From an uncultured Gammaproteobacteria bacterium (GTDB lineage: Bacteria > Patescibacteriota > Patescibacteriia > VMEV01 > CAYQCH01): a stretch of DNA of 64,000 bases. Under the pieces are notes generated by a model that saw only the letters and a list, made by a program, of their open reading frames with translations, had not been told where the DNA came from and searched no databases. This document shows, one piece after another, positions 6,055 to 60,625 of this stretch. The position numbers and the translations under genes were made by a program. Position 1 is the first letter of the stretch; each line of letters opens with the position of its first letter. The stretch spans positions 361 to 64,360 of the forward strand of contig CAYGRO010000007.1 in assembly GCA_964352335.1 (NCBI GenBank), written 5' to 3'.

Positions 6055-9000
6055 ATGCCAATAAAGAAAAAAACACCAAAGAAAAAAGTGGTTAAAAAAA
6101 CTCGAACAAAAACTCGAGCCACAAAAACCAAAACAACAACTCGTAAAAAACGAGCTTCTTCTGTTAGTAAAAAAACAGTGAAGGCAAAACCAGCAAAAAA
6201 GAAAACGACTAAGGTCGCTAAAAAAACGACTGTTAAATCAAAGAAGAAAAAAGTACTAGCTAAGCCTAAGAAAAAAGTAGTTAAAAAGTCTGTGCCCGCT
6301 GTGGCTGTAGAGCGAGCAATAAGTCCATCTACAAAAGCAGGTCAATTGCATAACCGACAAATACAGACAAAACAACATGTATATTTAGCTCCTACGAAAA
6401 CAAATACAGCTTTTTCTGTCTCTGGTTTTTCTTTTCAAAAAGCCTTATCTCAAGTACGAGATAAAGTACATACTACAGATGAGCCAATTGCGATAACTCC
6501 AATAGAAGCTCCAATAAAACTAGAGTTAGATGATCAGCCAGAACAGCCTCATTTTTCTCCCTATGTTTTAGATTTAAAATCAAGAAAAACAGTTGTTACA
6601 ACTCATAAACTTTCTCTCAATTCTGCTAAACCAGAACAAGTACAATTAGGTCTTTTTGAAGAAGAGGTTAAAACACCTGTTCAATTTATTGCTCAATCTT
6701 GGAATAATTTTCTTGCTTCACTCAAACCAAGAAGAAGAATTAATCTTATCCCTCGTGAACAAAAGCAAGGAGTCAGTTTATCTCAGAAGATCGCCAGAAA
6801 GCATAAACGATTTCAATTTCATTTAGAAGAATTTGGAGAGTTATTATCTCGTCCGTATCAACTTTGGAGAGATGCTAAACGACAAAAAACTTTTGGATTG
6901 CCTCGAGAAACGAGTAGGCAGAAACAAGTTCCACTAATTTCAAATAGAACAAGGTCTGGTGAAGCCATTCCTGTTTCTCGTATAGATAAAATTCATCAAA
7001 AAGCAAAAAATGTTGCCGCTTCTGCACAGATTTCTGTGACAAGTTTATCTGATGTATTAAAACGTCAACCCAAACCAAAGAAAACTTTTTCTTTAGAGCA
7101 TTTATCTTTGCAAAAAGCTTTTATGCCTTTTGCTGTTTTGGCTTTTGTCATTTTATTGCCTTTTGCTGGGGCGTCACTGTATGAAGGGCTTTCTCAAACA
7201 CAAGGTGAAGTATTAGGAGCAACAAATCAGGCTGTTTCGAAATTGCAATCAGCTACCAACTATGCAAAATCTTTTCAGTTTTTACAAGCGAGTAAAGATT
7301 TTCAACAGGCTTCACAAACATTTTTAGCGGCATCTGCATTAATTGAAAACCAACAAGGGCTTTCTACCAAGGCTTTATCTGTATTACCAGTTGTTGGAGA
7401 AAAAGTGAGAGCAGGGAAAGATTTATTAACGATTGGAAATGAATTATCAGAAGCAGCAACCTTATTTTCACAAGGTATTGCTGTATTGGCAGATGAAAAA
7501 CATTTTCTTGTGGATCAGCCGATGTCATATAAATTGGAATACCTTTTTGTTCGATTACAAGAAGCACAACCACATGTGCAATCAGCTGTTTCGATGTTAA
7601 ATGAAATCGATCCTGCAAATATCCCAGAAGATATTCAAGGTGATATTGAAATGCTTAAACAATCATTACCAGTTCTTTCAGAAAAATTACATCAGTTTAC
7701 GGAAATGGATCAATCTGTTCTTAGCTTTTTAGGGCATCAAAACTTAGAGCGATATTTAGTTGTATTTCAAAATAATACAGAATTACGAGCTACAGGTGGA
7801 TTTTTTGGAAGTCTTGCGTTAGTTGATATTGACCGAGCAGAAATAAAAAATATTGAAATCCCTGGTGGTGGTCCCTATGATTTTCAAGGAAGTCTTTACA
7901 AAAACTATGAATCACCAAGAGCAATGCAATTGATTAATCCTCGATGGGAGTTACAAGATACAAATTGGTTCTTTGATTGGCCAACATCTGCTCAAAAAAT
8001 TACACATGTCTATGAACAATCTGGTGGTCCAACTGTTGATGGTGTGATTGCTTTAAATACAAATGTACTACAAACATTGTTAGAATTTACTGGTCCCGTC
8101 CAATTAGCATCGTATGAAAAAGAATTCTCTGCCGAAAATTTTAGAGAAATTTTGCAACAACATGTTGAATTTGAATACGATGAAGAATTAAACCAGCCAA
8201 AGAAAATTATTGCAGACTTAGCTCCTGTTTTATTGGAACGAGTTAAGTTATTAGATCCTGTTGAATACTTAGAGTTAGCAGCACATTTAGGTGAATTATT
8301 TCAAACGAGAGAACTCTTTATTTATCATACAAATGAAGACGTGCAAAAAGAATTTTCTAAGTTAGGATGGTCAGGGGAAGTTGTACAAACAGAAAGCGAT
8401 TACTTAGCCATTGTACATACAAATTTAGCTGGTGGAAAAACAGATGGTGTTATCAAAGATTCTTATGATCTTACAACACATTTTTCTGAAAACAATACTA
8501 TTCAGCATACATTAACAATTGCACGTACACATACGGGTCAAAAAGGAATTCCATTAATTGGAGTACGAAATGTAGATTACTTAAGAGTTTATGTACCAAA
8601 AGGAAGTAAACTTATCTCCGCAACTGGTTTTGAAAAACCACCAACAGACTTATTTGAATCTCCTGGAGAAAATTGGATTGTTGACCAAGATTTATTAGCA
8701 AGCCAAGGTACATACACAGTAGATTCAACGACAGGAGTAGAAATCTATGAAGAATCTGGAAAAACAGTCTTTGCAGATTGGGTGCAAACAGATCCCGGAG
8801 AAAGACAAGAAATTCAAATTACTTATGAAGTGCCAGCGAGTGTTATTTCTGAATTTATTTTACCAACTCGTGAGTCTTCTTGGTTAGATTGGGTTACTGG
8901 TAAAACAGTTAATACAGAAGAAGAAGTAAAAGCCTATCAACTGTATTGGCAAAAACAATCAGGTGCATGGGACCCAGAAATGCATTTGAGTATTGATTAT

Positions 9001-9117
9001 CCACAAGAATGGCAATTACAATCCTTTTCTGATGTCACAGGAGATCATGGAATAGGTAAATGGTCAGCACAAGCGAGTATGAATGCAGACTCATTGTGGA
9101 ATTTCCTTCTTTATTAG
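6055..9117 (+). CDS. Large membrane-anchored protein with Lys-rich histone-H1-like N-terminal tail and ~650-aa extracytoplasmic domain
   Basis: SD GGAG 6 nt upstream of ATG at 6055; N-terminus KKKTPKKKVVKKTRTKTRATKTKTTTRKK…; single TM (FMPFAVLAFVILLPFAG) near residue 360. Confidence 0.55.
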   Translation: MPIKKKTPKKKVVKKTRTKTRATKTKTTTRKKRASSVSKKTVKAKPAKKKTTKVAKKTTVKSKKKKVLAKPKKKVVKKSVPAVAVERAISPSTKAGQLHNRQIQTKQHVYLAPTKTNTAFSVSGFSFQKALSQVRDKVHTTDEPIAITPIEAPIKLELDDQPEQPHFSPYVLDLKSRKTVVTTHKLSLNSAKPEQVQLGLFEEEVKTPVQFIAQSWNNFLASLKPRRRINLIPREQKQGVSLSQKIARKHKRFQFHLEEFGELLSRPYQLWRDAKRQKTFGLPRETSRQKQVPLISNRTRSGEAIPVSRIDKIHQKAKNVAASAQISVTSLSDVLKRQPKPKKTFSLEHLSLQKAFMPFAVLAFVILLPFAGASLYEGLSQTQGEVLGATNQAVSKLQSATNYAKSFQFLQASKDFQQASQTFLAASALIENQQGLSTKALSVLPVVGEKVRAGKDLLTIGNELSEAATLFSQGIAVLADEKHFLVDQPMSYKLEYLFVRLQEAQPHVQSAVSMLNEIDPANIPEDIQGDIEMLKQSLPVLSEKLHQFTEMDQSVLSFLGHQNLERYLVVFQNNTELRATGGFFGSLALVDIDRAEIKNIEIPGGGPYDFQGSLYKNYESPRAMQLINPRWELQDTNWFFDWPTSAQKITHVYEQSGGPTVDGVIALNTNVLQTLLEFTGPVQLASYEKEFSAENFREILQQHVEFEYDEELNQPKKIIADLAPVLLERVKLLDPVEYLELAAHLGELFQTRELFIYHTNEDVQKEFSKLGWSGEVVQTESDYLAIVHTNLAGGKTDGVIKDSYDLTTHFSENNTIQHTLTIARTHTGQKGIPLIGVRNVDYLRVYVPKGSKLISATGFEKPPTDLFESPGENWIVDQDLLASQGTYTVDSTTGVEIYEESGKTVFADWVQTDPGERQEIQITYEVPASVISEFILPTRESSWLDWVTGKTVNTEEEVKAYQLYWQKQSGAWDPEMHLSIDYPQEWQLQSFSDVTGDHGIGKWSAQASMNADSLWNFLLY

Positions 9118-9134
9118 TTCTTTTAGTCACTTTT

Positions 9135-11177
9135 ATGGCGAAAAAATCAAAAAAATCTAAACAAAAAAAGAAATTAGCTGATTTTAAAAAACAGCAATCA
9201 GATATGGTTGTGCAGGATAATCCTCTAGAAGAAACCGTACAGAATGAGAAGAAAGTAGAGATGAATTCTAAAAAGGAACGAAAGCCACGAAAAGGTTTAG
9301 GCCAAGAACTTATCGAAGTCTATGAATCAACAGGAGATGACTTAACTTCTGTAACCATGCTTGAGCATAGACGAAGAAGTTGGCAAAGAATGCTTTTGAT
9401 CATTCTTATTTTCCTTTTCTTTGTATTTATTGGTGTTGCCGTTGTGTCTTGGATTATTTGGGGTGGAAATAAAAGTTTCAGTGGAGATAATGTAGAGTTT
9501 AGTATCGCTGCTCCCACGGAAATTAATTCTGGACAAGAAGTGACTTATAAAATTGATTATGCGAATAGAGAAGATGTTAGTTTTAGAAAAGCAGAAATTG
9601 AATTGCGATTACCTCCTGGATTTATTTTCCTTTCTGCAGACCCAAGCCCAACAACGGGAGAAAACCTTTGGGATTTAGGTTCACTAAGTGCTGGAGACGA
9701 TGGAAGTATCGAAGTAATAGGGAAGCTTGTTGGAAAACCAGAAGTTGATACCACTATTTCTGGTGTATTACGATATTGGCCTGCAAACTTTAGTTCAGAG
9801 TTTCAAGAAGTAGCTTCTGCACAGTCTTTAGTAAAACCAGTACAAGCATTATTTAGAATTGAAGGTCCAGATCAAGTTCTGATTGGGCAAAAAGCGAGTT
9901 ATGCGGTAAATGTAAAAAATGATTCAGATAAGCTCATGAGCGATTTACAAGTACAAGCTATTTATCCAGCTGACTTTATTGTTGATTCAACGGAACCAGA
10001 AATTGTGGAACCATATGATACATGGGAAATTGAATCAATCGAACCGGGGCAAGAATATGAAATTCAAATTGATGGCTTCTTTTCTAAGCTTGAAGAACCA
10101 GAATTAGAGCTTATTGTTGTGCTATCTCAAAAAGGACCAGAAGAGGGTTATTTTGACCAAAAAGAAGAGCGTATATCTACTGTATTGATTGAAGGGGATT
10201 TACTTGTAAACCTCATTGCAAACGGTACAACAAAAGATACATCTGCCCAATGGGGAGATGTGATTAATGTATCAATTAATTATCAAAATAGTTCAGAAGC
10301 TCAATTAGCAGATCTAACTGTGATTGCAAAACTAGAAACTCGTTATCGGATAAATGAAGGGGAAAAAGGCAGTGCAGGTGGAATTAGTTTCTCATCTCTT
10401 ATCGATGCAAATAAAGGGAGCGTTAAAGAAGTAGATAAAATAAATGCTCAATCGGTACACGTGCGTACGATTACATGGGACGGAACAGATATTGATTCAC
10501 TAGAATCATTAGATGAAGATGAAGAAGGAACAATTAATCTTCAGTTTTCATTACTAGATGCAGAAGCTGCGATTAAAGCATTAGATCATGCAGGAGATGC
10601 AGAAATTGTTCTTGTTGCAGATGTCATTGTTGGAAAAACAGGAGGAGTAGATGAAGAAATTACGGTAACAAGTAATCCAATTACAATAAAATTGAATACA
10701 GATCTTACCATGGACGCATTCGCAAGATATTATGGTGAAAATGAAGAACAATTAGGAAATGGTCCATTACCACCAACGGTTGGAGAAAAAACAACTTATC
10801 GAGTTTTTGTTGATTTAACAAATTCTATTCATGAAGGGCAAGATATTATTGTTAGTACACAATTGCCATCTAATGTTTCTTGGGTAAATAATTATTCCGT
10901 AAGTGCTGGTGAAGTGGAATTTAGCTCAAGCGGTAGCGATTTAACTTGGCGTTTGAATAAATTGCCATTAGATGTAAATGAAGTTTCTCTCGCTTTTGAT
11001 GTTGAGTTAAATCCTCTAGAAACACAAATTGGTAAAGTAGCTGCTTTAACGAAGAAAATCACCATGACAGCTACAGACTCAATTACTGGTGGAAAACTCA
11101 TACAAACAGCTTCTCCATTAACAACGGCTATCGACCGAGATAAAACAGGTTCAGATAAAGGTTTGGTCACAAATTAA
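9135..11177 (+). CDS. Membrane-anchored protein with Lys/Glu-rich cytoplasmic N-tail and repeated beta-sandwich (DUF11-like) ectodomain
   Basis: Likely start MAKKSKKSKQKKK at 9135; TM LLIILIFLFFVFIGVAVVSWIIWGG; adjacent and co-oriented with 6055-9117. Confidence 0.55.
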   Translation: MAKKSKKSKQKKKLADFKKQQSDMVVQDNPLEETVQNEKKVEMNSKKERKPRKGLGQELIEVYESTGDDLTSVTMLEHRRRSWQRMLLIILIFLFFVFIGVAVVSWIIWGGNKSFSGDNVEFSIAAPTEINSGQEVTYKIDYANREDVSFRKAEIELRLPPGFIFLSADPSPTTGENLWDLGSLSAGDDGSIEVIGKLVGKPEVDTTISGVLRYWPANFSSEFQEVASAQSLVKPVQALFRIEGPDQVLIGQKASYAVNVKNDSDKLMSDLQVQAIYPADFIVDSTEPEIVEPYDTWEIESIEPGQEYEIQIDGFFSKLEEPELELIVVLSQKGPEEGYFDQKEERISTVLIEGDLLVNLIANGTTKDTSAQWGDVINVSINYQNSSEAQLADLTVIAKLETRYRINEGEKGSAGGISFSSLIDANKGSVKEVDKINAQSVHVRTITWDGTDIDSLESLDEDEEGTINLQFSLLDAEAAIKALDHAGDAEIVLVADVIVGKTGGVDEEITVTSNPITIKLNTDLTMDAFARYYGENEEQLGNGPLPPTVGEKTTYRVFVDLTNSIHEGQDIIVSTQLPSNVSWVNNYSVSAGEVEFSSSGSDLTWRLNKLPLDVNEVSLAFDVELNPLETQIGKVAALTKKITMTATDSITGGKLIQTASPLTTAIDRDKTGSDKGLVTN

Positions 11178-11185
11178 AACATGAT

Positions 11186-11258
11186 TCATGGTGCATGGGG
11201 CATGGTACAATTCGTTCATTTTGAGCTATGTATCCTGTACTCATGCACCATGTTTTTT
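11186..11258 (+). terminator. Rho-independent terminator (11-bp stem, long loop) + T6
   Basis: tcatggtgcatg…catgcaccatg followed by ttttttatt. Confidence 0.55.
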
Positions 11259-11307
11259 ATTCTAAACCATTGCAATTTATCCTCTTTTCTGGTATCGTAT
11301 CGATTCT

Positions 11308-12426
11308 ATGTATACTCTCAAAAAGCAATCAATAGTATCAAAAGCACGTCGCGGTGAAGTGCAAACGGAACATGGGGTGATCCAAACTCCATTTTTTATG
11401 ACGATTGCTACACGTGGGGCTGTAAAAACGCTTACAACAGAAGATATGCGTCAATTACAGGCGCAAATCATTCTTTCCAATACCTACCATTTAAATATGC
11501 GTCCTGGTACTGAGCTTTTAGACAAAGCAGGCGGACTACATTCCTTTATGAAATGGGATGGACCAATTTTAACAGATAGTGGCGGGTATCAAGTTTTTAG
11601 TTTAGCTAAAATGCGTAAAATTTCAGAACAAGGGGTAAAGTTTAAAGATCCTGTCTCTGGGACTAGCTATGAACTTACACCAGAAAGAGTTATCGACATT
11701 CAGTTGTCTATTGGAAGCGATATTATGATGGTTTTAGATGAATGCCCAGCATTGCCATGTACAAAAACAGAAATGGAAAAATCCATTGCACTCACTCATA
11801 GATGGGCACAAAGAGCTTATGATTATAGACAAAGCTTAATTGATTCCAAAAAAATTAAAGCTGGTCGGCATAATTTATTTGGAATTGTTCAAGGTGGGGT
11901 AGATAAAGAATTACGAAAACATTCTTTAGAAACACTATCTTCCATTCCTTTTGATGGTTATGCCATTGGTGGTTTAGCTGTTGGAGAGCCACGAGAAGAA
12001 ATGTATGAAATGCTCGATTTTCTCACACCACAAATGCCAGAGAATAAACCTCGTTATCTCATGGGGGTAGGGAAGCCAGAAGAAATTGTCCATGCGGTTA
12101 AACAAGGAGTTGATATGTTCGACTGTGTAATCCCAACGAGACATGCAAGACACGGTCAATTATTTGTCTTCACCGATAGAGAGAACCTTAATGGAGATTT
12201 TTACGAAGCAATTAATATCACCAATGAAAAATATGAAAATGATTTTACGGTCGTAGATGAAACCTATACAGATCAATTTTCTTTTACCTATACCAAAGCC
12301 TATTTGCGACATTTATTCAAAACAAATGAATTACTCGCATATAGGTTAGCAACACTCCATAATGTCCGTTTCTACTTAGAGTTAATGACCCTTATCCGTA
12401 AAGCGATTGAAGAAGATCGTTTATAA
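11308..12426 (+). CDS. tgt: Queuine tRNA-ribosyltransferase
   Basis: 372 aa; motifs LTDSGGYQVFSL, VQGGVDKELR, zinc-site CxCxxC…H region; typical TGT length. Confidence 0.85.
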   Translation: MYTLKKQSIVSKARRGEVQTEHGVIQTPFFMTIATRGAVKTLTTEDMRQLQAQIILSNTYHLNMRPGTELLDKAGGLHSFMKWDGPILTDSGGYQVFSLAKMRKISEQGVKFKDPVSGTSYELTPERVIDIQLSIGSDIMMVLDECPALPCTKTEMEKSIALTHRWAQRAYDYRQSLIDSKKIKAGRHNLFGIVQGGVDKELRKHSLETLSSIPFDGYAIGGLAVGEPREEMYEMLDFLTPQMPENKPRYLMGVGKPEEIVHAVKQGVDMFDCVIPTRHARHGQLFVFTDRENLNGDFYEAINITNEKYENDFTVVDETYTDQFSFTYTKAYLRHLFKTNELLAYRLATLHNVRFYLELMTLIRKAIEEDRL

Positions 12427-12428
12427 TC

Positions 12429-13169
12429 ATGATGCTTGTTACATGTACACCATGTACCATATCTCATGATAAGATTATGCAACAAGAAATTTGGGAAAAA
12501 GAATATGAACAAGGACAATTAGTTTCCTTGGATGATAAACCACAGTCATATATGAATCGGTATTTTCGTCGTCTCAAATTTTCTTTAGATAAAGATTTTG
12601 AGGATTGGTCTGTTTTAGATCTTGGTTCTGGGACAGGACGAAATAGCAATTTCTTAGCAGAAAAAGGTTCAGAAGTAACAGGAATAGAGATTGCAAAAAA
12701 TGCATTAGAATTGGCAAAGAAACGAGCTATTGAAATGGGGGTAAAAGTAAATTATCTTCATCAAAGTATTGGTGAGCCATACCCATTCAAAGACAATAGT
12801 TTTGATCTTGTTATGGATATTACATCTTCAAATTCACTCAATAATGCAGAGCGAGAAGTGTATTTAAAAGAAGTCCATCGAGTATTAAAACCTGGTGGGG
12901 CATTTTGGGTACGAACATTATCGTTAGATAACGATAAAAACGCTAAAAACTTATTGAAACTCTTTCCTGGTTCAGAAGAGCATACCTATATTATGCCTGG
13001 TACTGGTATTGAAGAACATGTCTTTACCAGACAAGAGTTTTATAAATTATATCAACAGTATTTCGATATAAAAAAGTTTGAAAAGCCAGTAACGTATACT
13101 CCATTTAAAGGACAACCGTATAAACGTCATTTTTTCTTCGCATGGATGAAGAAAAAGGAAGTGGAATAA
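12429..13169 (+). CDS. Class I SAM-dependent methyltransferase
   Basis: Motif I VLDLGSGTGRNS; 246 aa; start may be internal ATG (~12477). Confidence 0.7.
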   Translation: MMLVTCTPCTISHDKIMQQEIWEKEYEQGQLVSLDDKPQSYMNRYFRRLKFSLDKDFEDWSVLDLGSGTGRNSNFLAEKGSEVTGIEIAKNALELAKKRAIEMGVKVNYLHQSIGEPYPFKDNSFDLVMDITSSNSLNNAEREVYLKEVHRVLKPGGAFWVRTLSLDNDKNAKNLLKLFPGSEEHTYIMPGTGIEEHVFTRQEFYKLYQQYFDIKKFEKPVTYTPFKGQPYKRHFFFAWMKKKEVE

Positions 13170-13230
13170 AATACAATTTGGCAAAAAGAAAAGCGGCTTA
13201 AGGGCCGTTTTTTGCTTTAAAAAAGGGGGA

Positions 13231-13262
13231 GCCCGCAACAGTGTGTCGACTGTGTTGCGGGC
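13231..13262 (-). terminator. Hairpin terminator serving the high-GC island-2 gene (T6 follows on - strand)
   Basis: gcccgcaaca…tgttgcgggc 10-bp arms; on - strand followed by cccccttttttaaagc. Confidence 0.55.
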
Positions 13263-13286
13263 TCTATCCATCCTCCAAATTCCACG

Positions 13287-14051
13287 TTAGGCAAGCTCGG
13301 CTTCCCGTTGTCGTGGGGTGTCTTCCTCCGGCTCTGAGTTGTTCTCTTCTCGTGCTTTCGGTGGTTCGTTTCGCTTTCGCTCGACGATTTGTTTGAGCGG
13401 TTCACGACCTGAGTCGTTTTCCGTCTCTTCTTCTTCCTCACCTTGAAGTGACCATGAGGCAAGAATCTTGTCGTCATCCATGGCTTCGTCTTCTGCTCGC
13501 TCGATTTCAGCAACTGCTTCGTCGAGGTCAGTGAGAAGCTCATTGAGCTTAACGACGGCCTCTTGGTTGTCGACAGCCATCACGTCACTCGTAGAGATGG
13601 TGCCAAGATCTTTCACAGCAGATTCTAGCGCCATCCGGATCTCCAGAATCTCGTTGATGTCTTGGAGTTGGATGACACGAAGCGCGATGCGTTTGATCTG
13701 GTCGAGGATAAGTGAGAACTTCTTCTCACGTCCCTTGAGCGCCTTCTCTGGGTCGAGGTCGAATGCTTCGAACTCAGGATGGCGACCGCTCTTCTGTTTG
13801 GTGCGTTCAAAGATCTCTTTGAGCTTGTTGAGCAAGGTGCTTAGCTTTTCCTTGCGGATCAGCGTGTCTTGCTCTCGGGCCCCGATGAGACCGAGCTTGA
13901 TACCCAGTCTGGTTCGTTCGAGCCGAGTTCTGATAGCGCCTCGGTACCAGTAGCACGTGCAGGCAATGAATGCCACAGTGCTCATTGCGATAACCTCGGC
14001 ATTAGCCGCGATCCAGTAATCCCATGAGAGGGCAAAAGTCATGTAAGGCAT
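13287..14051 (-). CDS. N-terminally membrane-anchored coiled-coil protein with acidic C-terminal tail (254 aa), high-GC island gene
   Basis: SD AAGGAG 7 nt upstream of ATG at 14051; TM WIAANAEVIAMSTVAFIACTCYWY; charged heptad-like region; EEEEETEND… tail; GC3-rich. Confidence 0.55.
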   Translation of the reverse strand: MPYMTFALSWDYWIAANAEVIAMSTVAFIACTCYWYRGAIRTRLERTRLGIKLGLIGAREQDTLIRKEKLSTLLNKLKEIFERTKQKSGRHPEFEAFDLDPEKALKGREKKFSLILDQIKRIALRVIQLQDINEILEIRMALESAVKDLGTISTSDVMAVDNQEAVVKLNELLTDLDEAVAEIERAEDEAMDDDKILASWSLQGEEEEETENDSGREPLKQIVERKRNEPPKAREENNSEPEEDTPRQREAELA

Positions 14052-14111
14052 GGTAGTCTCCTTTACCCCTCTGGGGTGATTCTTCGTTACACGCGACAAC
14101 TTACTGTTCGG

Positions 14112-14140
14112 ATCATAACGAAAACTACGACCAAGGTCAA
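14112..14140 (-). promoter_or_regulatory. Sigma70-like promoter TTGACC-17-TATGAT for island-2 gene
   Basis: Read on - strand: ttgacc ttggtcgtagttttcgt tatgat, ~50 nt upstream of SD. Confidence 0.45.
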
Positions 14141-14252
14141 TTGGAAAGCCACCCTAAAACCCTTGTTTTTAATGTGGATAACTTAAAAAACACCTAAATT
14201 GTTGAGTATGCTAATCTCAGTAGTATGAGAAAAATGTTATACTAGAAGTCCT

Positions 14253-15530
14253 ATGGATCAAGCACCAGAAATACCTATTTTAACCGTTACCCAATTTAAC
14301 GATACCGTCAATCAAGTATTGGCGGATATGCGTGTTTGGGTAAAAGGAGAAATTTCTGGCTATAAAGTAAGTCAAAATAAATGGGTGACCTTCGACCTTA
14401 AAGATGAAGGGAGTAAGGTCAATGTATTTATGACCATTTATCAAGTTGACCAAGTACTAGAAGATGGAATGGAAGTAAAAGTATTTGGTAATCCACGTAT
14501 TTATGTTCCTTATGGAAAATATAGTTTTACTGCTCAACGAGTAGAACCTGTTGGAGAAGGGGCACAAAGAAGAGCTTTTGAATTGACCAAACAAAAATTG
14601 GAAACAGAGGGTCTTTTTGATCCAGCTTATAAAAAAGAGTTACCAAGATTTCCGCAAACAATCGGTATTGTCACATCTGCAGAAGCTGCTGCGTATACAG
14701 ATTTTTTGCGTATTTTAAATAATCGGTGGGGAGGCGTTACTACAATTTTGCGTCCATCCCTTGTACAAGGGAATAATGCACCAGGTGAGTTAGTAGATGC
14801 AATTGAATGGTTTAATAAATTTCATCCAGTAGATGTAATGGTGATCACTCGTGGAGGAGGGTCATTAGAAGATTTACAAGCATTTAATTCTGAACAGGTC
14901 TGTCGTGCAATTTTCGCATCTAGAATCCCTATTATTTGTGGTATTGGTCATGAACGAGATACATCGCTGGCAGAACTTGTTGCAGATAGACGTGCTTCTA
15001 CTCCATCGAATGCTGCTGAAATTGCTGTTCCAGATAAAGAAGAAATACAATGGCAATTACAAAGAATGGAAAAAACAATGTCAGATACGATCTATACTAA
15101 ATTAGCTGATTTACGTTCAAACTTGGAAGACATGCTCTCTCGTATGGAAAGTGTATTACGAGATTATGCAAAAACGTTTCAAGAATTGGATCATCGTCTA
15201 AAACTAAGTTTTCAAACGTATCGATTACAATTACAAGCTTTTCAACAAGATCTTGGTTCATTGGCCAAACGAATCCAGCTAGCATCAAATTCTGTTTTTA
15301 ATTCATACCATGATCAACTAGATCAATTGGGGAAATTACTCACTTCCTATAGTCCCAAACTAGTGCTTAAACGAGGATATAGTATCGCTCGTTTAGGGAA
15401 TGGAAAGGTTGCAACTTCTGTAAAACAAGTTAAAACTGGAGAAGTTATTCAAACTGAATTTGCAGATGGCTCTATTTCTTCCATTGTTGAATCAAAAGGG
15501 AAGTTGGTAGAGAATGGCCGATTATTGTAA
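14253..15530 (+). CDS. xseA: Exodeoxyribonuclease VII large subunit
   Basis: 425 aa; OB-fold N-terminus, GGGSLEDL motif, adjacent xseB. Confidence 0.85.
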   Translation: MDQAPEIPILTVTQFNDTVNQVLADMRVWVKGEISGYKVSQNKWVTFDLKDEGSKVNVFMTIYQVDQVLEDGMEVKVFGNPRIYVPYGKYSFTAQRVEPVGEGAQRRAFELTKQKLETEGLFDPAYKKELPRFPQTIGIVTSAEAAAYTDFLRILNNRWGGVTTILRPSLVQGNNAPGELVDAIEWFNKFHPVDVMVITRGGGSLEDLQAFNSEQVCRAIFASRIPIICGIGHERDTSLAELVADRRASTPSNAAEIAVPDKEEIQWQLQRMEKTMSDTIYTKLADLRSNLEDMLSRMESVLRDYAKTFQELDHRLKLSFQTYRLQLQAFQQDLGSLAKRIQLASNSVFNSYHDQLDQLGKLLTSYSPKLVLKRGYSIARLGNGKVATSVKQVKTGEVIQTEFADGSISSIVESKGKLVENGRLL

Positions 15531-15537
15531 TTACTTG

Positions 15538-15596
15538 GCTAGTAGGAGGGTAGGAGAGTAGCAACTACACTCCTACCTTCCTACTCTCCTACTAGC
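15538..15596 (+). other. Very stable ~24-bp-stem hairpin between xseA and xseB (no T-tract)
   Basis: gctagtaggagggtaggagagtag-caactacactc-…ctactctcctactagc; 2 GU, 1 mismatch. Confidence 0.7.
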
Positions 15597-15660
15597 TAAA
15601 AATACGATGCCAAAAAAACAACTAAGGAATAACAACATTAACTATTAAACACCACAATAA

Positions 15661-15882
15661 GTGGAAAATATGGCTAAAGCAAAAACATTTAATTTTGGAG
15701 AATCATTTAACGAACTGAATCAAATTGTTGATCAATTAGAATCTGGTGATATTGGTTTAGATCAAGCATTGAAGCAATATGAAGATGGTTTAAAACTTGT
15801 ATCTGAATGTAAAAAACAGTTAACGCAAGTCGAGAATAAAGTAAAAGTAATCCGAGATAAATACGTTGAAGAAGAGGTTTAA
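15661..15882 (+). CDS. xseB: Exodeoxyribonuclease VII small subunit
   Basis: 73 aa; FEESFNELNQIVDQLESGDIGLDQALKQYEDGLKL typical XseB. Confidence 0.8.
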   Translation: MENMAKAKTFNFGESFNELNQIVDQLESGDIGLDQALKQYEDGLKLVSECKKQLTQVENKVKVIRDKYVEEEV

Positions 15883-15903
15883 AGACTCGCTTTATACATT
15901 TTC

Positions 15904-16980
15904 ATGTTTACATTAATTTCTCTCATTGGTTTTACCCTAACACTAGTCCTCACTTGGGGGGTACGCCGATTTGCGCTTTCTCAAAATATTGTTGATGACC
16001 CCAAAGGGGTAGAGAGAAAGATTCATTCAAAGCCCAAACCACTTTTAGGTGGTGTTGCAATTTATCTAGGGCTTTGTTTTACAATTTTTCTATCGTATCT
16101 ATTAGAATTGCTTCCACAAGGCTCTATTTCTGGTAAGCAATTAATCGGTTTACTTTTCGGTGGTGCATGGCTTATTTTAGGAGGTGTTTTAGACGACAAA
16201 TATAATTTCTCACCTAAAAAACAAATCCTCTTTCCTTTGCTTGCTGTATTAACGGTCATTTCTAGTGGAATAGGAATTGAATCTTTTACCAATCCTTTTG
16301 GTGGACAATTCTTTTTAGATCAATTTGAATTTACATTATTTTCTTTAAAAGGCATTCCATATTCTGTCACATTATTAGCAGATGTCTTCACCTTTCTTTG
16401 GCTATTTGGTTTTATTTATGCCACGAAATTTTTTGATGGACTTGACGGACTCGTTTCTGGTATTACCGTTATTGGTGCTTTTACTGTTTTTGCAACGAGT
16501 TTATTACCTAAAGTAAATCAACCAGAAACCGCATTACTTGCTCTTATTGTGGCGAGTTGTTTTGCAGGATTTCTCTTCTTCAATTTTAATCCAGCCAGCA
16601 TTTTTTTAGGAGAGGCGGGGAGTACATTAGCGGGGTTTCTTATTGGAAGTTTGGCAATTATTGCAGAAAGTAAAATTACAACAACATTAGTTGTTATGTC
16701 ATTGCCTTTACTCGATTTACTTTGGACAGTAGTAAGAAGAACTTTTTTAGAAAAAACATCTCCAACAAAAGCAGATCGAAAACATATACACCATCGACTG
16801 CTCGATTCAGGTTTATCTCATCGTTCGGCTGTTTTTCTTTTGTATCTTTGGGCGATAGGTTTAGGTATTGTTGCATGGTTATATCAAAGTACTGAGTTAA
16901 TCGAATTGTTGTTTTTATCATTTGTTTTTCTCATTAGTTTTGCTATCTATCTTATTTATAGAATAAAAAAATATGCATAA
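15904..16980 (+). CDS. Glycosyltransferase family 4 phospho-sugar transferase (MraY/WecA family)
   Basis: 358 aa polytopic; motifs GGVLDDKYNFSPKKQ and KFFDGLDGLVSG. Confidence 0.8.
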   Translation: MFTLISLIGFTLTLVLTWGVRRFALSQNIVDDPKGVERKIHSKPKPLLGGVAIYLGLCFTIFLSYLLELLPQGSISGKQLIGLLFGGAWLILGGVLDDKYNFSPKKQILFPLLAVLTVISSGIGIESFTNPFGGQFFLDQFEFTLFSLKGIPYSVTLLADVFTFLWLFGFIYATKFFDGLDGLVSGITVIGAFTVFATSLLPKVNQPETALLALIVASCFAGFLFFNFNPASIFLGEAGSTLAGFLIGSLAIIAESKITTTLVVMSLPLLDLLWTVVRRTFLEKTSPTKADRKHIHHRLLDSGLSHRSAVFLLYLWAIGLGIVAWLYQSTELIELLFLSFVFLISFAIYLIYRIKKYA

Positions 16981-17425
16981 AGGCTTTTTTCTTTTATTTT
17001 TTGTTCTATTAGGTTCAGGTTGCCAAATACAACCAATAGCAGATTCAGTAGACAATGAAATAACTTCTGTACAAATTGGGAATGCAACTTATTCTGTTGA
17101 AGTAAAAGATACGCCAATAGAAAGAAACCAGGGGCTTTCTGGAAGAGAAAAGCTTGGAGAAAATGAAGGCATGCTCTTTTTATTTGATCAACCCCAAGAA
17201 TTAAGCTTTTGGATGAAAGATATGCAATTTCCATTAGATTTCATTTGGATAAATGACCAAGTCGTTATTGGGTTAGATGAACATATTCCTCATCCTGCAA
17301 TAAATAACAACGAAATTGCCCGTTTAAGCTCTCCAGAAGCGACTGATACAGTTTTAGAAGTAAATGCTGGGCACATAGAGCTTTATGGTCTTAAAATAGG
17401 GGATTTGGTTAAATATGAGCGGTAG
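16973..17425 (+). CDS. DUF192-family lipoprotein
   Basis: Signal + lipobox LGSGC; FPLDFIWIND… motif of DUF192; overlaps upstream gene by 8 nt. Confidence 0.55.
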   Translation: MHKGFFLLFFVLLGSGCQIQPIADSVDNEITSVQIGNATYSVEVKDTPIERNQGLSGREKLGENEGMLFLFDQPQELSFWMKDMQFPLDFIWINDQVVIGLDEHIPHPAINNNEIARLSSPEATDTVLEVNAGHIELYGLKIGDLVKYER

Positions 17426-17426
17426 A

Positions 17427-17455
17427 TTGACAAATTAGGATTGTTTTCGTATAAT
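17427..17455 (+). promoter_or_regulatory. Consensus sigma70 promoter TTGACA-17-TATAAT upstream of rplU
   Basis: ttgaca aattaggattgttttcg tataat, exact consensus hexamers and spacing. Confidence 0.7.
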
Positions 17456-17461
17456 CTGCTT

Positions 17462-17534
17462 ACACAAATTAAGGGCCTTTCGTGGGGCTTTTTAAGTTCC
17501 TCAGTAAGAGGACGCCACAGAAAGCCAAAAACTT
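17462..17534 (+). promoter_or_regulatory. 5' leader of rplU (possible L21-leader-type autoregulatory RNA)
   Basis: ~75-nt structured untranslated leader between promoter and rplU ATG; family assignment unverified. Confidence 0.3.
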
Positions 17535-17852
17535 ATGAGTAAAATCGCTGTTATCAAAACAGGGGGGAAGCAATATAAGGTCAAAGAAAAGGATCTCATC
17601 AAGGTTGAGAAGCTAGAAATTGAAGAAGGTCAAACAGTGACTTTTGACGAAGTGCTTCTCGTAGCTGATGAAAACGGATCTGACGTTCAAATTGGTACTC
17701 CTACACTTTCTACAAAAGTAACTGGAAAAGTTCTTGAACAAGGACGAGCGAAAAAAGTGAATGTGGTTAAATACAAAGCCAAAACGCGTTACCACAAAAA
17801 ATACGGACATCGTCAACCATTTACAAAAATAGAGATTGAAAAAATCGCGTAA
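17535..17852 (+). CDS. rplU: 50S ribosomal protein L21
   Basis: 105 aa; MSKIAVIKTGGKQYKV… canonical L21 N-terminus. Confidence 0.9.
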   Translation: MSKIAVIKTGGKQYKVKEKDLIKVEKLEIEEGQTVTFDEVLLVADENGSDVQIGTPTLSTKVTGKVLEQGRAKKVNVVKYKAKTRYHKKYGHRQPFTKIEIEKIA

Positions 17853-17860
17853 AAAATTAA

Positions 17861-17920
17861 ATCCCTTTCTTGTCTAATAATCAATACTAATTGATTTCTA
17901 AACAAGGAAGGGATTTTTTC
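17861..17920 (+). terminator. Rho-independent terminator after rplU
   Basis: atccctttcttg…caaggaagggat 12-bp stem (1 GU) followed by tttttt. Confidence 0.65.
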
Positions 17921-17948
17921 GTCAACAGTCAACTATAGTTGGAGTGCT

Positions 17949-18104
17949 ATGGAAGTAGATTGGCTTGATCGGGCAAGCCAGATGGTGCTTGGTTTGTCAG
18001 CGCTATTAGTCATTGTCATCGTTGTGGCAATGATGTGGCTTTTCATTGGAGAACCGCTCTACTACCGCTGGAAGGAGGCATGCGATAAGCGGAAGTCGGC
18101 ATAG
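17949..18104 (+). CDS. Small single-TM protein (51 aa) in high-GC island 3
   Basis: SD GGAG 5 nt upstream; MEVDWLDRASQMVLGLSALLVIVIVVAMMWLFIGEPLYYRWKEACDKRKSA; not in ORF track (<60 aa). Confidence 0.35.
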   Translation: MEVDWLDRASQMVLGLSALLVIVIVVAMMWLFIGEPLYYRWKEACDKRKSA

Positions 18105-18131
18105 GTGGGAAGAGGCAGCAAGAGGGCAAGA

Positions 18132-18185
18132 CCTCGTTTTGTGAAAGCGTCAACACGCAATTATGAAACGAGGCTCTTCTTTTTT
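18132..18185 (+). terminator. Hairpin (8-bp stem, 26-nt loop) + T-rich run after island-3 ORF
   Basis: cctcgttt…aaacgagg then ctcttctttttt. Confidence 0.4.
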
Positions 18186-18963
18186 ACGAGGGGTTTTGTA
18201 ATGCTCCTACAACTTTTCTCACAAAATTTCGCGGGGAAATACGTGGTAATTGCGTAATGATTTTATTTACAATACCAGTGGTGACAATAACCTTTCTTTT
18301 TTCAATACCTTTTACAGCAAGTTGAGCAACTTTTTGAGATGTCATTACATTGCTATAGCGTAAGACTTTTAATGATTCCATTTCTGCTTCTTTTTGAAAT
18401 CCACTAATAGTTGGTCCCGGACAAATAGTCGTAATAGAGATACCAGTATCTTTTAGTTCTTCAGATAAAGCTTCAGAGAATGAAAGAACAAAAGCTTTTG
18501 TTGCATAGTAAACTGCCATATAAGGACCAGGTAAAAATGCAGCGACAGAAGCAATATTTACAATTTGCCCAGAAGTTCTTTTTTTCATTTGAGGTAGTAC
18601 CAATTTTGTTAATTCCACAAGAGTTGTGGTATTCAATTGAATCATATCTACTTCTCGATGAGAATCTGTTTCTTCAAATTTTCCAGCGAGCCCAAATCCA
18701 GCATTATTAATTAAAAGGTCAACAATAATACCTCTTGATTGCATTTGTTCAAATGCAACTTTTGCTGAACCAGGTTTTGCTAAATCAATAGGGAAGTAAC
18801 CAACGCGAATACCGTAATCTTCTTCTAAATTTTCTTTCACTCGTGTCAGTTTTCTTTCATCTCGAGAAAGTAAGAATAGGTCATATCCTTTTTGGGCATA
18901 AAGCTCACTTAGTTCGCGTCCAATGCCTCCCGAAGCACCCGTTATTACAACAGTTTTTTTCAT
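18184..18963 (-). CDS. Short-chain dehydrogenase/reductase (SDR)
   Basis: TGASGGIGRE Rossmann motif, NNAG, YxxxK catalytic motif (YYATK). Confidence 0.85.
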   Translation of the reverse strand: MKKTVVITGASGGIGRELSELYAQKGYDLFLLSRDERKLTRVKENLEEDYGIRVGYFPIDLAKPGSAKVAFEQMQSRGIIVDLLINNAGFGLAGKFEETDSHREVDMIQLNTTTLVELTKLVLPQMKKRTSGQIVNIASVAAFLPGPYMAVYYATKAFVLSFSEALSEELKDTGISITTICPGPTISGFQKEAEMESLKVLRYSNVMTSQKVAQLAVKGIEKRKVIVTTGIVNKIITQLPRISPRNFVRKVVGALQNPS

Positions 18964-19016
18964 AAAAGATTTGAGAATAAGGTCTTTATTTTATCAATTT
19001 GAGTCACTGTAATCAA

Positions 19017-19045
19017 TTGACAATGTCTATTTTCTTAGCTATAGT
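19017..19045 (+). promoter_or_regulatory. Consensus sigma70 promoter TTGACA-17-TATAGT for island-4 gene
   Basis: ttgaca atgtctattttcttagc tatagt; AT-rich host-like DNA directly abutting GC-rich ORF. Confidence 0.6.
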
Positions 19046-19069
19046 TTTATATCAACCAAGGAGGTTGCT

Positions 19070-19390
19070 ATGGCTGTTTTCTTGACGGCCGTAGTAGAAC
19101 TACCGGTCGGAACAAAGCGATATGCCGTCGACCTAACGGTTGACGTCGAAGAATTCGAGTCGGATTGCCCCTGTTATTGGTGCGACGGAATGGGGGCGCG
19201 CCTCGTTCTTATCAGCGCTTTACGCGTCTGGTCCACTCGCAAAAACAGGATTGTCTACCCCCAGCTACTTTATTGGATGGACGCAGTCTATGAAGCTGAG
19301 GAGCGACTTGGTGCTGGACGTCCGGTCTGCATCAACTGTTGGGACAGCGAGCTCTTGCCCTATGTGCGGGAGCGAGCATTGTTCAAATGA
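19070..19390 (+). CDS. Cys-rich small protein (106 aa), high-GC island 4; putative zinc-binding
   Basis: SD AAGGAGG 5 nt upstream; motifs DCPCYWCDG and CINCWD; no family recognised. Confidence 0.45.
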   Translation: MAVFLTAVVELPVGTKRYAVDLTVDVEEFESDCPCYWCDGMGARLVLISALRVWSTRKNRIVYPQLLYWMDAVYEAEERLGAGRPVCINCWDSELLPYVRERALFK

Positions 19391-19424
19391 GTCATCACTT
19401 GTCTGTGGTGGCTCTTTTCATTTT
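19391..19424 (+). terminator. Imperfect hairpin + T-tract after island-4 ORF
   Basis: gtcatcac…gtggtggc (2 GU) followed by tcttttcatttt. Confidence 0.4.
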
Positions 19425-20055
19425 AGGACAATAATATTTTCAAATAATTCTTAAGTGGGGTGAGTGCTAATTGTGACCATTCTTCAATAACACAATTATC
19501 ATCTGCGCAAAGCGCTTCCAATTTATCCAGTGAAATAAAAGAACCTTGAGCGATTTCTTTTGCTAAATTTAGTTCGGTTGAATTTGATTTGATTAAATAC
19601 AATAAACCAAAATGCACTTTTCCTACAGCATTTGTATCATCATTTATATAACCTAAAGGCGTAATTGTTGCTAAATCAAATAACCCCAATTCTTCTTCTA
19701 TTTCTCGTAATAAACTTGTATAAATAGGATTGTGATTCTCTGCATCTTCTTTATCTATATGTCCACCTATACCCCAAGACCATTTTCCATGTAAACGGTC
19801 TTCAGTTGCATGTTCTTTTTTTGACGCTCTTTGATAGGCAAAGAGCTCATTTTTTTCGTTAGTAATAAGGCAATAGGCAATTGGCTGTTGAAAGGTGTCA
19901 TCGTTTTCTGCTAATCCTCGTTTGAGATATTCAAAGTTATCAAGAATAAGGTTTTCATAATCATATTGGTCATGCGCAAGGAAACCTTGAAAATAGTTAT
20001 TCGCAAATAATGTTTCTCGTTTGATTACAAGAATTTCTTTTTCCATTTTATCCAT
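19423..20055 (-). CDS. NUDIX-family hydrolase
   Basis: Nudix box GGHIDKEDAENHNPIYTSLLREIEEELG. Confidence 0.65.
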   Translation of the reverse strand: MDKMEKEILVIKRETLFANNYFQGFLAHDQYDYENLILDNFEYLKRGLAENDDTFQQPIAYCLITNEKNELFAYQRASKKEHATEDRLHGKWSWGIGGHIDKEDAENHNPIYTSLLREIEEELGLFDLATITPLGYINDDTNAVGKVHFGLLYLIKSNSTELNLAKEIAQGSFISLDKLEALCADDNCVIEEWSQLALTPLKNYLKILLS

Positions 20056-20090
20056 AAGAGGGGAGAGTAATAATTGTATGACTCAAATTA

Positions 20091-21641: not shown

Positions 21642-21699
21642 ACAAAGAAAAAGATAAGTAGTGATACAGATTAAAACGGAGGAGTTAAAAAAATCTTAC

Positions 21700-21731
21700 A
21701 AAAAATAGCATCTATGCGATGCTATTTTTTG
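21700..21731. terminator. Bidirectional rho-independent terminator
   Basis: aaaaa atagcatc tatgc gatgctat ttttt; A-tract upstream and T-tract downstream. Confidence 0.65.
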
Positions 21732-21746
21732 ATCTACCAAATGAGC

Positions 21747-22154
21747 TTATTTCCAAATGGCTAATAATCCACCGATAAGCAATACCCAGACTAATTGATA
21801 GGTAATAAAAATAGTATAAAGAGGCATTTTTCTGTCTTCATACGCTTTGATAATCAAATGAGTTGATGCAATAAAACCAAGCCACGCCCAGAAACCTGTC
21901 ATCGCACCTTGTGCAAATGTAGTTGCTTCTGTTAGTGAAACAAAGTAAGCAAGAACCCATGCAAGAACGAGACTAGAAAGAAAGCTAATTCCCATCGCTT
22001 TAAGGGCATCTTCTTTTTTGATGTCTTCTGGCTTTTTATTCATGGCTTTCATCCATGCTTTTCCAAAAAACATTGGTGCATACCAGAATGCTCCAATAAT
22101 CATATAAATGACTCCGCTGACAAAGACTGCTAGTAAATTGATGTTTTCGAGCAT
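21747..22154 (-). CDS. DUF1761-family membrane protein
   Basis: 135 aa, 4 TM, N-terminal YMIIGAFWYAPMFFGKAW pattern. Confidence 0.5.
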   Translation of the reverse strand: MLENINLLAVFVSGVIYMIIGAFWYAPMFFGKAWMKAMNKKPEDIKKEDALKAMGISFLSSLVLAWVLAYFVSLTEATTFAQGAMTGFWAWLGFIASTHLIIKAYEDRKMPLYTIFITYQLVWVLLIGGLLAIWK

Positions 22155-22182
22155 ATTAAAAAGAATAAAGATTAAAAATAGC

Positions 22183-22800: not shown

Positions 22801-22806
22801 TTAACC

Positions 22807-22840
22807 ACTGACAACTGACATCTCTTCGTCAGTGGTCAGT
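22807..22840 (-). other. Intercistronic hairpin between ybaB and recR
   Basis: actgacaactgac-atctcttc-gtcagtggtcagt (13-bp stem, 1 mismatch). Confidence 0.5.
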
Positions 22841-60559: not shown

Positions 60560-60625
60560 CCGCCATCAGAGCGAAAAAGCTACTATCCTGCCAGCTACTA
60601 GCTAATACAAACATTTATCCACAGA

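Follow-up and report, generated by a model that had tools for sequence, protein, structure and literature searches.

Atypical base composition is standard first-line evidence of recent horizontal transfer, and the amelioration model predicts that the signal fades. Under the Lawrence-Ochman model, acquired islets and ORFans of atypical guanine-cytosine (GC) content are reportedly expected to ameliorate toward the composition of their host. The case considered here is a GC-rich, minus-strand unit that carries one gene between a methyltransferase gene (MTase) and xseA, located in a 64,000-nt stretch of contig CAYGRO010000007.1 (the window, W) from an AT-rich bacterium. This gene keeps a GC excess of ~15 points at the same position in several species whose neighbouring genes are synonymously saturated. 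The GC-richness of the gene and of its sister islands in the window is old and conserved, not a fading import signal, and no standard model explains its persistence. Loci from other genomes and metagenomes with which the window was compared are numbered L002-L026.

The unit resembles an acquired islet in that it is a compositional outlier with sharp edges, an orphan product, and presence/absence variation. However, its composition has not converged on that of the host despite saturated synonymous divergence, and its orthologues in three lineages are equally or more GC-rich. In addition, no donor homologues of the unit were found in the databases searched, and its borders carry no signatures of mobility.

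Phage morons are transcription units of their own, inserted between a pair of prophage genes (Cumby et al., 2012; PMC3594210). The unit shares with morons its own promoter and its own terminator around a single accessory gene, a location between genes that lie side by side in relatives (MTase and xseA in L024 and L002), and a deviating composition (52.1% GC vs 35.9%). It differs from morons in lying in the core chromosome, not in a phage or prophage. Nothing points to its horizontal spread; across species it has been passed on at one site, and its unusual composition is long-standing.

Integron gene cassettes are promoterless ORFs with an attC site, found in an array beside an integrase gene. 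In contrast, the unit has its own promoter, ends in a perfect stem with a T run instead of an imperfect attC site, and is isolated, with no integrase nearby. Biased gene conversion, with isochore-like heterogeneity, is said to have been proposed for bacteria by Lassalle and coworkers in 2015. Like regions shaped by GC-biased gene conversion (gBGC), the unit shows a stable, locus-specific GC excess that extends to synonymous sites, amino acids, and adjacent non-coding sequence. Unlike them, the islands of the window span just ~0.3-1.2 kb, their edges match the transcription unit, and the amplitude is far larger than that reported in bacteria.

The GC-rich unit and its chromosomal slot

GC content is 36.8% window-wide, and it reaches 50-60% per 100-bp window across ~13200-14140, with 29-41% on either side. 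The whole unit (13230..14161, minus strand), with edges set by comparison with the closest relative, L024, comprises 932 bp at 52.1% GC, whereas its 2-kb flanks stand at 35.9% and 35.8%. Against 932-bp windows across 20-64 kb (mean 36.1%, standard deviation 1.7, maximum 42%), the unit has a z of 9.5. An earlier note on this DNA had described a self-contained high-GC cassette on the minus strand, and each of its parts is in place: promoter, leader with a Shine-Dalgarno (SD) site, a single coding sequence (CDS), and a terminator form one monocistronic unit. GC at the three codon positions of the CDS is 0.62/0.36/0.60 (GC1/2/3), and high GC also covers the 5′ untranslated region (UTR) and the terminator.

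An independent Logan contig (run ERR3534985) matches window positions 7024-22819 at 15796/15796 bases, spanning the studied island and two others, and the 254-aa protein is also recorded on a 72.8-kb NCBI contig. Given this contig and the orthologous islands from unrelated sequencing projects, the GC island is not an assembly artefact. The surrounding window is core chromosome without prophage context. It encodes tgt, a class-I S-adenosylmethionine (SAM) methyltransferase, xseA/xseB, a GT4 glycosyltransferase, ribosomal protein L21, RecR, and DnaB, and further a P-type ATPase, iPGM, a Mur ligase, and GDH. In a species-representative collection, the nearest genomes are metagenome-assembled genomes (MAGs), and the more distant XseA matches come from MAGs of Saccharibacteria and Andersenbacteria at 40-47% identity. 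The host is taken to be an AT-rich bacterium similar to Patescibacteria, the candidate phyla radiation (CPR), which the gene content also resembles.

An exhaustive HMMER scan of 1.84 billion representative proteins recovered only three homologues, all remote (~30% identity): P0006 (274 aa, E = 8e-22), P0007 (257 aa as called, E = 1.4e-17), and P0008 (261 aa, E = 4.8e-14). P0007 was called 17 codons short (L016:7851-7901). Judged by its conserved leader and SD site and by the alignment of the N-terminus, translation truly starts at L016:7851, and the protein begins with MPILSLASSFEALVAAN. The homologues are 254-274 aa long with intact ORFs in every lineage, and they share the start, the N-terminus with its transmembrane (TM) segment, the motifs TRLG…LGL, S-x-R-x-P, and LDQIK, the acidic tail, and a C-terminal peptide. 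Beyond these, a word-indexed search of 5.8 billion clusters (90%) returned nothing except the protein itself, scans of IMG/VR and JGI metagenomes with the family alignment yielded no members, tblastn against phage and plasmid records found no family members, and PHROG and BFVD contained no match to the unit's protein.

All three homologues occupy the slot between MTase and xseA, downstream of tgt and on the opposite strand, in related AT-rich genomes. The conserved order comprises a DUF4012 protein, a CLIPPER-like protein, tgt, MTase, the gene, xseA, xseB, GT4, DUF192, and L21. From tgt to L21 the full order is present in L016 and in L017-L019, and in L015 the gene adjoins the MTase gene. Across these lineages the regulatory elements have changed less than the protein has. 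Since both the slot and the regulatory elements are common to relatives, vertical inheritance is the simplest reading, and the sequence evidence supports descent of the gene within a small clade, always in this slot and always on the opposite strand. The suggestion of a foreign high-GC insert is not borne out, as homologues were found only in the same slot of related AT-rich genomes. The earlier note had named an AT-rich homologue at this position in relatives as evidence against it; a homologue is indeed there, but it is GC-rich, which rules out a recent import and leaves the composition as the puzzle.

The gene is absent from the closest relative, L024 (JGI metagenome), although the MTase and XseA proteins are 96% and 87.5% identical to those of the window. 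There, ~130 bp separate the methyltransferase stop from the xseA start, and the empty site, in which AAAAGAGGGGG is directly followed by CTTATTTTTATGTGGATAAG, equals the window sequence minus 13230-14161. At the window junctions, AAAAAAGGGGG is followed by AGCCCGC at one edge of the unit, and AAAACC is followed by CTTGTTTTTAATGTGGATAAC at the other. L024 keeps AAAAGAGGGGG, an A run with GGGGG that is the complement of the unit's terminator tail. Based on this remnant and on parsimony, by which presence in W, L017, and L016 requires one loss against three gains, L024 probably lost the unit cleanly. Its precise absence from L024 also makes the unit dispensable. The view that the unit is physically an addition, set between xseA and the methyltransferase gene, is confirmed, as the neighbours abut in L024 and in the outgroups L002 and L004. 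Among the relatives with ~50% GC, all without the gene at this site, MTase abuts xseA in L002, tgt abuts xseA in L004, and another gene lies upstream of xseA in L003. The unit was probably acquired in the common ancestor of the AT-rich sub-clade.

Neither terminal inverted repeats (TIRs) nor a target-site duplication (TSD) are present at the edges 13230 and 14161. There are no mobility genes near the unit, and the sole tRNA gene of the window lies at 24795-24870. An origin from the ~50% GC relatives was considered and rejected, as the codons preferred in the islands (CTC, CAC, ATC, AAG) differ from those of L002 (CTG/CTT, CAT, ATT, AAA) and these relatives lack the gene.

Persistence of the GC excess and sister islands

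The contrast between the gene and its neighbours recurs in each lineage. In W, the unit has a GC of 0.52 and the gene a third-position GC (GC3) of 0.60, with flanking-gene GC3 at ~0.21. The corresponding gene values are 0.52 and 0.55 in L016 (flanking-gene GC3 0.18-0.30), 0.61 and 0.74 in L017 (0.25-0.33), and 0.58 and 0.60 in L015, where the flanking MTase gene has a GC3 of 0.44. Across lineages, gene GC3 lies at 0.54-0.74 vs a background of about 0.25-0.27.

Identity of the flanking proteins is 56-89% for W vs L017 and 33-78% for W vs L016, but just 25-30% for the island protein. With the Nei-Gojobori method (NG86) and Jukes-Cantor correction, the synonymous divergence (dS) of flanking genes is 0.8-2.1 between W and L024, and ranges from 1.2 to beyond the correctable range between W and L017, which puts their synonymous sites at or near saturation. 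For the island gene, W vs L017 gives a non-synonymous divergence (dN) of 0.73 and a dS of ~2, with a dN/dS ratio (omega) of ~0.35 or less. The gene evolves ~3-7 times faster than its neighbours, and relaxed purifying selection on a coiled-coil/disordered protein suffices to account for this pace without hypermutation or cassette swapping.

With synonymous change of this size in each lineage, no more than about a quarter of an imported GC3 excess would be expected to survive. Back-calculation from the present GC3 of 0.55-0.74 requires an ancestral GC3 above 1, so passive retention is untenable if vertical inheritance holds. The GC-richness is instead a stationary, gene-specific state rather than that of an un-ameliorated import, and it affects all codon positions, the Arg/Lys ratio, and the UTRs. 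Codon usage in the islands strongly favours C-ending codons together with AAG and GAG, unlike usage in the ~50% GC relative L002. NAC is chosen over NAU at frequencies of 0.73 for Asn, 0.69 for Asp, 0.62 for Tyr, and 0.60 for His, vs 0.07-0.18 in host genes, with a preference for TTC, ATC, CTC, GTC, and AAG as well. The R/K ratio is 1.28 in island proteins vs 0.58 in host proteins. Because amino acids shift toward Arg over Lys, the pressure acts on the nucleic acid and not on synonymous choice alone. An enrichment of TCGA was also pursued and set aside, as the other islands lack it and amino-acid sequence together with codon usage accounts for most of it. Where one species was assembled from several samples, its contigs agree at 99.9-100% identity and yield no spectrum of single-nucleotide polymorphisms.

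The studied gene is not alone. GC3 of the 63 non-overlapping ORFs of the window is bimodal, with two discrete classes. Four ORFs form the high class at 0.59-0.73 (90-536, 545-1084, the studied gene, and 19070-19390), and a 51-aa ORF at 17949-18104 has a GC3 of 0.60. The remaining 59 range from 0.17 to 0.45 with a median of 0.25; the top value in this group belongs to a 76-aa ORF whose coding status is in doubt, and the rest do not exceed 0.39. The gene belongs to a class, as at least three other small GC-rich units of the window (islands 1, 3, and 4) behave alike, and GC-rich orphan genes are found only in the AT-rich members of the clade.

Island 1 (1-1207) is a two-gene unit of 56.5% GC. Its first ORF (90-536) encodes 148 aa with a Tat-like signal (RRNLLK) and a lipobox-like Cys, and its second (545-1084) encodes a 179-aa orphan followed by a strong hairpin at ~1100-1137. 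Immediately before the first SD site, a hairpin with a T run (~38-76) resembles a terminator. The orthologues P0009 and P0010 (57% identity) occupy the same place upstream of a prenyltransferase/DUF4430 gene, and they too are GC-rich with an AT-rich flank. Island 3 (17919-18239, plus strand) carries the 51-aa ORF (17949-18104), a single-TM peptide between L21 and a short-chain dehydrogenase/reductase (SDR) gene. GC-rich counterparts are found in the same place in L024 and L017, with the small TM ORF poorly conserved, and the L21 terminator hairpin just upstream of the island is well conserved.

Island 4 (19033-19448, plus strand; ORF 19070-19390, GC3 0.59) encodes 106 aa with two CxxC pairs resembling a zinc ribbon, behind a predicted TTGACA-17-TATAGT promoter. 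The ORF is not called as a gene on this genome's Logan contig. The island sits between NUDIX and SDR genes in L024, L025, and L017 and is a tandem duplicate in L016. Orthologue identity is 76% (L024, L025) and 65% (L017) vs 77-80% and 66-77% for the flanks and thus tracks the species tree, with omega at ~0.2 and a GC3 of 0.51-0.65 in these orthologues (0.41-0.65 overall). The sister islands keep their GC-richness under ordinary purifying selection.

If this holds, composition would be a conserved trait of the gene, and atypical GC, as it is routinely used to diagnose recent transfer, would lose weight as evidence. Once confirmed, such loci would offer a natural orthologous test bed for whether bacterial GC is set by mutation, biased conversion, or selection on nucleic acids, and would warn against labelling islands of this kind as foreign in MAG annotation. 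A literature search on GC islands in CPR genomes, their persistence, and amelioration found no description of the pattern, which is not proof that none exists.

Explanations for the persistent GC excess

The evidence is best joined in the reading that the unit is an autonomous, resident, single-gene element, vertically inherited and of stationary GC content, for which selection at the transcript level is favoured; this joint reading is given a probability of roughly 0.55. Selection on the nucleic acid of the transcript may keep GC high, a guess that is favoured because the GC-rich stretch follows the transcription unit and has hairpins at both ends. A GC-rich body with a 5′ hairpin and a strong 3′ hairpin could yield an mRNA that is unusually stable or differently regulated within an AU-rich transcriptome, and such 'armoured' transcripts could form a regulon of unusually stable or specially translated mRNAs. 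As a tentative generalization, the islands may be chromosomal genes whose GC-richness is actively and heritably maintained in AT-rich, Patescibacteria-like genomes, a bacterial 'micro-isochore' produced either by armoured transcripts or by locus-targeted, GC-biased repair or conversion.

Several observations weigh against this reading. As dS is saturated, the argument for stationary composition is semi-quantitative, being based on NG86 with Jukes-Cantor correction under biased composition. Island GC3 differs between genomes (0.41-0.74), which can also be read as decay at different rates, and in Island 4 the polarised third-position changes comprise 8 GC>AT vs 3 AT>GC, a count of few sites that is biased by parsimony. 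The choice of loss in L024 over gain elsewhere is drawn from parsimony and one retained tail motif. The CDS has a minimum free energy (MFE) of -250 to -311 kcal/mol vs -163 to -170 kcal/mol for host genes of equal length; in synonymous shuffles, however, its z of -1.9 to -3.2 is no better than the -2.7 of a host control gene. As the two z values match, structure beyond composition is unsupported. Selected RNA structure was accordingly rejected as an explanation, since the z of -3.5 for the whole transcript stems mostly from the terminator. On the protein side, the AlphaFold model has a mean pLDDT of just 64 from a 4-sequence alignment, the topology derives solely from hydropathy and the positive-inside rule, and neither family, fold, nor a neighbouring operon gives a clue to function.

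Among rival accounts, the recent import of an un-ameliorated high-GC cassette from an actinobacterial or other high-GC donor would explain the atypical composition, the sharp edges, the preference for C- and G-ending codons, and the absence of the unit from L024 and the outgroups L002, L003, and L004. It is nevertheless very improbable. In L016 and L017, where the flanks are dS-saturated, the slot holds orthologues that share the promoter, leader, and terminator, and the L015 gene likewise adjoins MTase; no homologue appears outside the clade among the 1.84 billion representatives, the 5.8 billion 90% clusters, phage and plasmid records, IMG/VR, and JGI contigs; and a mobility gene, tRNA, TIR, and TSD are all absent at the unit. 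A moron-like variant of mobility is unlikely rather than negligible; in it, divergent members of a GC-rich pool, borne by unsampled phages or other elements in these bacteria, repeatedly replace one another by recombination at the conserved ends so that the CDS is always 'young'. All formal features of a moron except the phage context are present, the ends are conserved around a CDS that is ~30% identical, CDS identity is alike (25-33%) for near and far species pairs, the locus varies in presence, and GC3 varies between lineages. However, searches of phage, plasmid, viral-contig, and other contexts yielded no family member, and the terminator hairpin is single-copy in the window with just one metagenome match, made by chance. 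Moreover, a dN of 0.73 with omega ~0.35 or less fits vertical descent under relaxed constraint, and Island 4 co-diverges with its flanks yet is GC-rich, so replacement is not needed to explain the composition.

Other rivals keep the unit resident and place the cause elsewhere. GC-biased gene conversion, or a local recombination hotspot, would raise GC at every position through frequent recombination at accessory loci with GC-biased mismatch repair. It fits the presence/absence variation at the locus and a rise that extends to every codon position, to the choice of amino acids, and to the UTRs, which looks mutation-like and unlike codon selection. The very sharp edges (≤40 bp) that match the transcription unit, with no decay with distance, make it improbable. 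To our knowledge, a GC3 difference of +0.35 to +0.45 is also far above the reported effects of bacterial gBGC. Codon-based gating of translation, in which rare C- and G-ending codons tie translation to tRNA supply or modification (with queuosine as a candidate) or keep output low, draws on the striking NAC/NAU contrast, the preference for TTC, ATC, CTC, GTC, and AAG, the two discrete GC3 classes, and the location of tgt two genes upstream. This idea is held to be a poor candidate, as it leaves the GC-rich UTRs, the GC1 shift, and the amino-acid composition unexplained; the gene for ribosomal protein L21 is barely shifted (GC3 0.30), and the proximity of tgt is possibly a coincidence. GC-rich patches in AT-rich genomes often mark structured RNAs, and the whole transcript folds with a z of -3.5, which would fit an incidental ORF within a structured non-coding RNA, a DNA-level element, or an assembly chimera. 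This is scarcely credible given the protein homology at E = 1e-14 to 1e-22, the conserved length, start, TM segment, and motifs, and an omega below 1. The folding excess comes mostly from the terminator hairpin, Rfam 15 gives no match at its gathering threshold (weak hits of ≤28 bits vs 50-90 cover the terminator region only), and an identical independent assembly and orthologous islands from other projects speak against a chimera.

Regulatory signals, product, and neighbouring features

The predicted σ70-type promoter of the unit, TTGACC-17-TATGAT(C), lies at 14112..14140 on the minus strand, with the -35 element TTGACC at 14140-14135, the -10 element TATGAT at 14117-14112, and 10/12 matches to consensus. 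It agrees with the site proposed earlier and is the sole promoter-type site found by a motif scan of 12900-14400. A single consensus match is not significant by itself, since shuffles yield 1.7. However, the exact pattern recurs in the same place in every relative whose upstream region is assembled and nowhere else in 28 loci. TTGACC-N17-TATGATC followed by AGTAAG is common to W, L016, and L017-L021, while the upstream region of L015 is not assembled; the conserved AGTAAG lies near the inferred transcription start. The putative 5′ UTR of ~54 nt (14052..14105) contains a 4-bp hairpin, CCCC-AGA-GGGG (14066-14076), directly 5′ of the SD site AAGGAG (14058-14063), which precedes the ATG by six nt. 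All four lineages keep the hairpin and SD site, and L016 shows a single compensatory change (GCCC...GGGC). The whole 5′ UTR folds no better than shuffled sequences (z = +1.1).

The predicted intrinsic terminator (13219..13264, minus strand) consists of a stem of GAGCCCGCAACA and TGTTGCGGGCTC, with arms of 12 nt each (13253-13264 and 13229-13240) that are 100% complementary, a 12-nt loop containing GTCGAC, and a tail of C4 (13225-13228) followed by T6 (13219-13224). Its presence was correctly predicted, but the arms had been placed at 13231-13262, ~2 nt short at each end of the true 13229-13264. The fold has -31.7 kcal/mol and a z of -4.3, with 0/200 shuffles as good; an automatic terminator scan missed it because C4 parts the stem from the T run. 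W and L017 have the same stem and differ in just a minor part of the loop; in L017 the tail CCCCCTTTCCT forms a weaker U run. The outer stem GAGCCCGCG is also found in L015. Directly 5′ of the stem, a conserved block of the 3′ UTR, TTTGGAGGATGGATA (13265..13279), is nearly identical between W and L017, though the adjacent CDS has only ~30% amino-acid identity, and it pairs with the C/U tail in the MFE fold. The hairpin was also considered as the end of a mobile element or an uptake sequence and rejected, as it has a single copy in the window and no TIR or TSD; its one metagenome match (L026) is on a GC-rich, eukaryote-like contig.

The CDS (14051..13287, minus strand) comprises 254 codons and a TAA stop (13289-13287). 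The ATG start is preferred over an upstream TTG, which would give a 270-aa ORF, because AAGGAG lies six nt upstream and the N-termini of homologues align. Hydropathy and the AlphaFold model place the sole TM segment at codons 13-35 (13947..14015). The hydrophobic segment spans residues 14-32 with a mean Kyte-Doolittle value of 1.62, and the best 19-aa window reaches a mean of 1.6-2.0 in all four homologues. No Lys or Arg precedes the segment, whereas 2-4 occur in the 15 residues after it (4 in the window protein). By the positive-inside rule the protein would be a single-pass membrane protein with its N-terminus outside and its C-terminus inside. AlphaFold2, run on a 4-sequence alignment (mean pLDDT 64, pTM 0.40), models an all-helical protein to ~residue 202, with N-terminal helices at 3-16 and 18-35, and disorder beyond; pLDDT is below 50 at residues 205-221 and 228-254. 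The Pro-containing, acidic tail (codons 196-254; 13290..13466) is predicted to be disordered on pLDDT and charge counts. The last 60 residues contain 18 Asp and Glu, the net charge of the protein is -15, and alignment of homologues shows that the tail ends in the conserved peptide P-[PR]-[QRK]-[RK]-x-A-E-[PL]-A. The earlier description of an N-terminal TM helix with an acidic tail is thus upheld by the hydropathy segment, the helical model, and the tail charges.

The same description had likened the protein to scaffold or division proteins of high-GC Gram-positives, a kinship that finds no support in matches to EzrA, ZipA, DivIVA, Pfam, NCBIfam, or the PDB. Profile and fold comparisons with division and scaffold families (EzrA, ZipA, DivIVA, FtsB/L, SepF, and others) gave no match, nor did searches of Pfam, PHROG, NCBIfam, PADLOC, and the PDB. 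In the division machinery, ZipA and EzrA act as cytoplasmic scaffolds or adaptors with an N-terminal anchor. The window protein resembles them in outline, with one N-terminal TM anchor, a cytoplasmic bulk, helical and charged regions, and a flexible linker with a short conserved end. Unlike them, it shows no sequence or fold similarity, is far shorter than EzrA, lacks a globular C-terminal domain of the ZipA type, is dispensable, and is confined to one small clade. The predicted layout comprises ~12 residues outside, one TM helix, and a helical cytoplasmic domain of ~165 residues with S-x-R-x-P and LDQIK. A weak suggestion from this layout is that the protein may serve as a membrane-tethered cytoplasmic adaptor, with the acidic tail and C-terminal peptide recruiting a partner to the membrane. 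On sequence grounds, the product is a tiny orphan family, new, very narrow, and membrane-anchored, in poorly understood and probably episymbiotic bacteria.

Two further reading frames overlap the unit. The antisense, Ser-rich ORF of 161 aa (13468..13953, plus strand) is spurious, as had been supposed. Its open stretch of 168 codons compares with a null mean of 148 when the codons of the sense gene are shuffled synonymously (p = 0.35), and homologues do not conserve the frame with the longest antisense ORF. Dual coding was therefore rejected, as the length of the antisense ORF follows from composition. A 74-aa ORF on the minus strand (13047-13271) starts at the conserved GGAGGATG of the 3′ UTR, crosses the terminator, and continues into the methyltransferase gene in antisense; this frame is open in L017 too. 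Translation of the ORF is improbable, because the SD-like GGAGG directly abuts the ATG with no spacer between them.

The adjoining methyltransferase gene (12429-13169, plus strand) encodes a generic class-I SAM enzyme (Methyltransf_25/11). In PADLOC, the same protein matches mad2, a model from a methylation-associated defence system (E = 1e-21), though the match probably reflects nothing more than a shared domain. The gene has its own small terminator (13180..13216, plus strand), a hairpin followed by T6 in the fold of 13165-13235, which is convergent with the terminator of the unit. On the other side, just outside the unit in the divergent intergenic region shared with xseA, lies a perfect DnaA-box consensus, TTATCCACA (14173..14181, minus strand). 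It is conserved in W, L017, and L024 and is flanked by an AT-rich inverted repeat (14164-14192). The window holds three perfect DnaA boxes (14173-14181, 8997-9005, and 60615-60623) vs 0.7 expected, and 2/100 shuffles reach three.

Across the compared genomes, GC content ranges from ~36% to 55% among L002-L005 vs W, L016, L017, and L024, which share gene order and 59-88% XseA identity. This amounts to a large, genome-wide GC shift within one clade that was apparently fast. Upstream of xseA (14228-14255), a TATACT box lies exactly 9 nt before the ATG, with no SD site, in W, L002, L016, L017, and L024, which suggests that the xseA mRNA is leaderless or nearly so.

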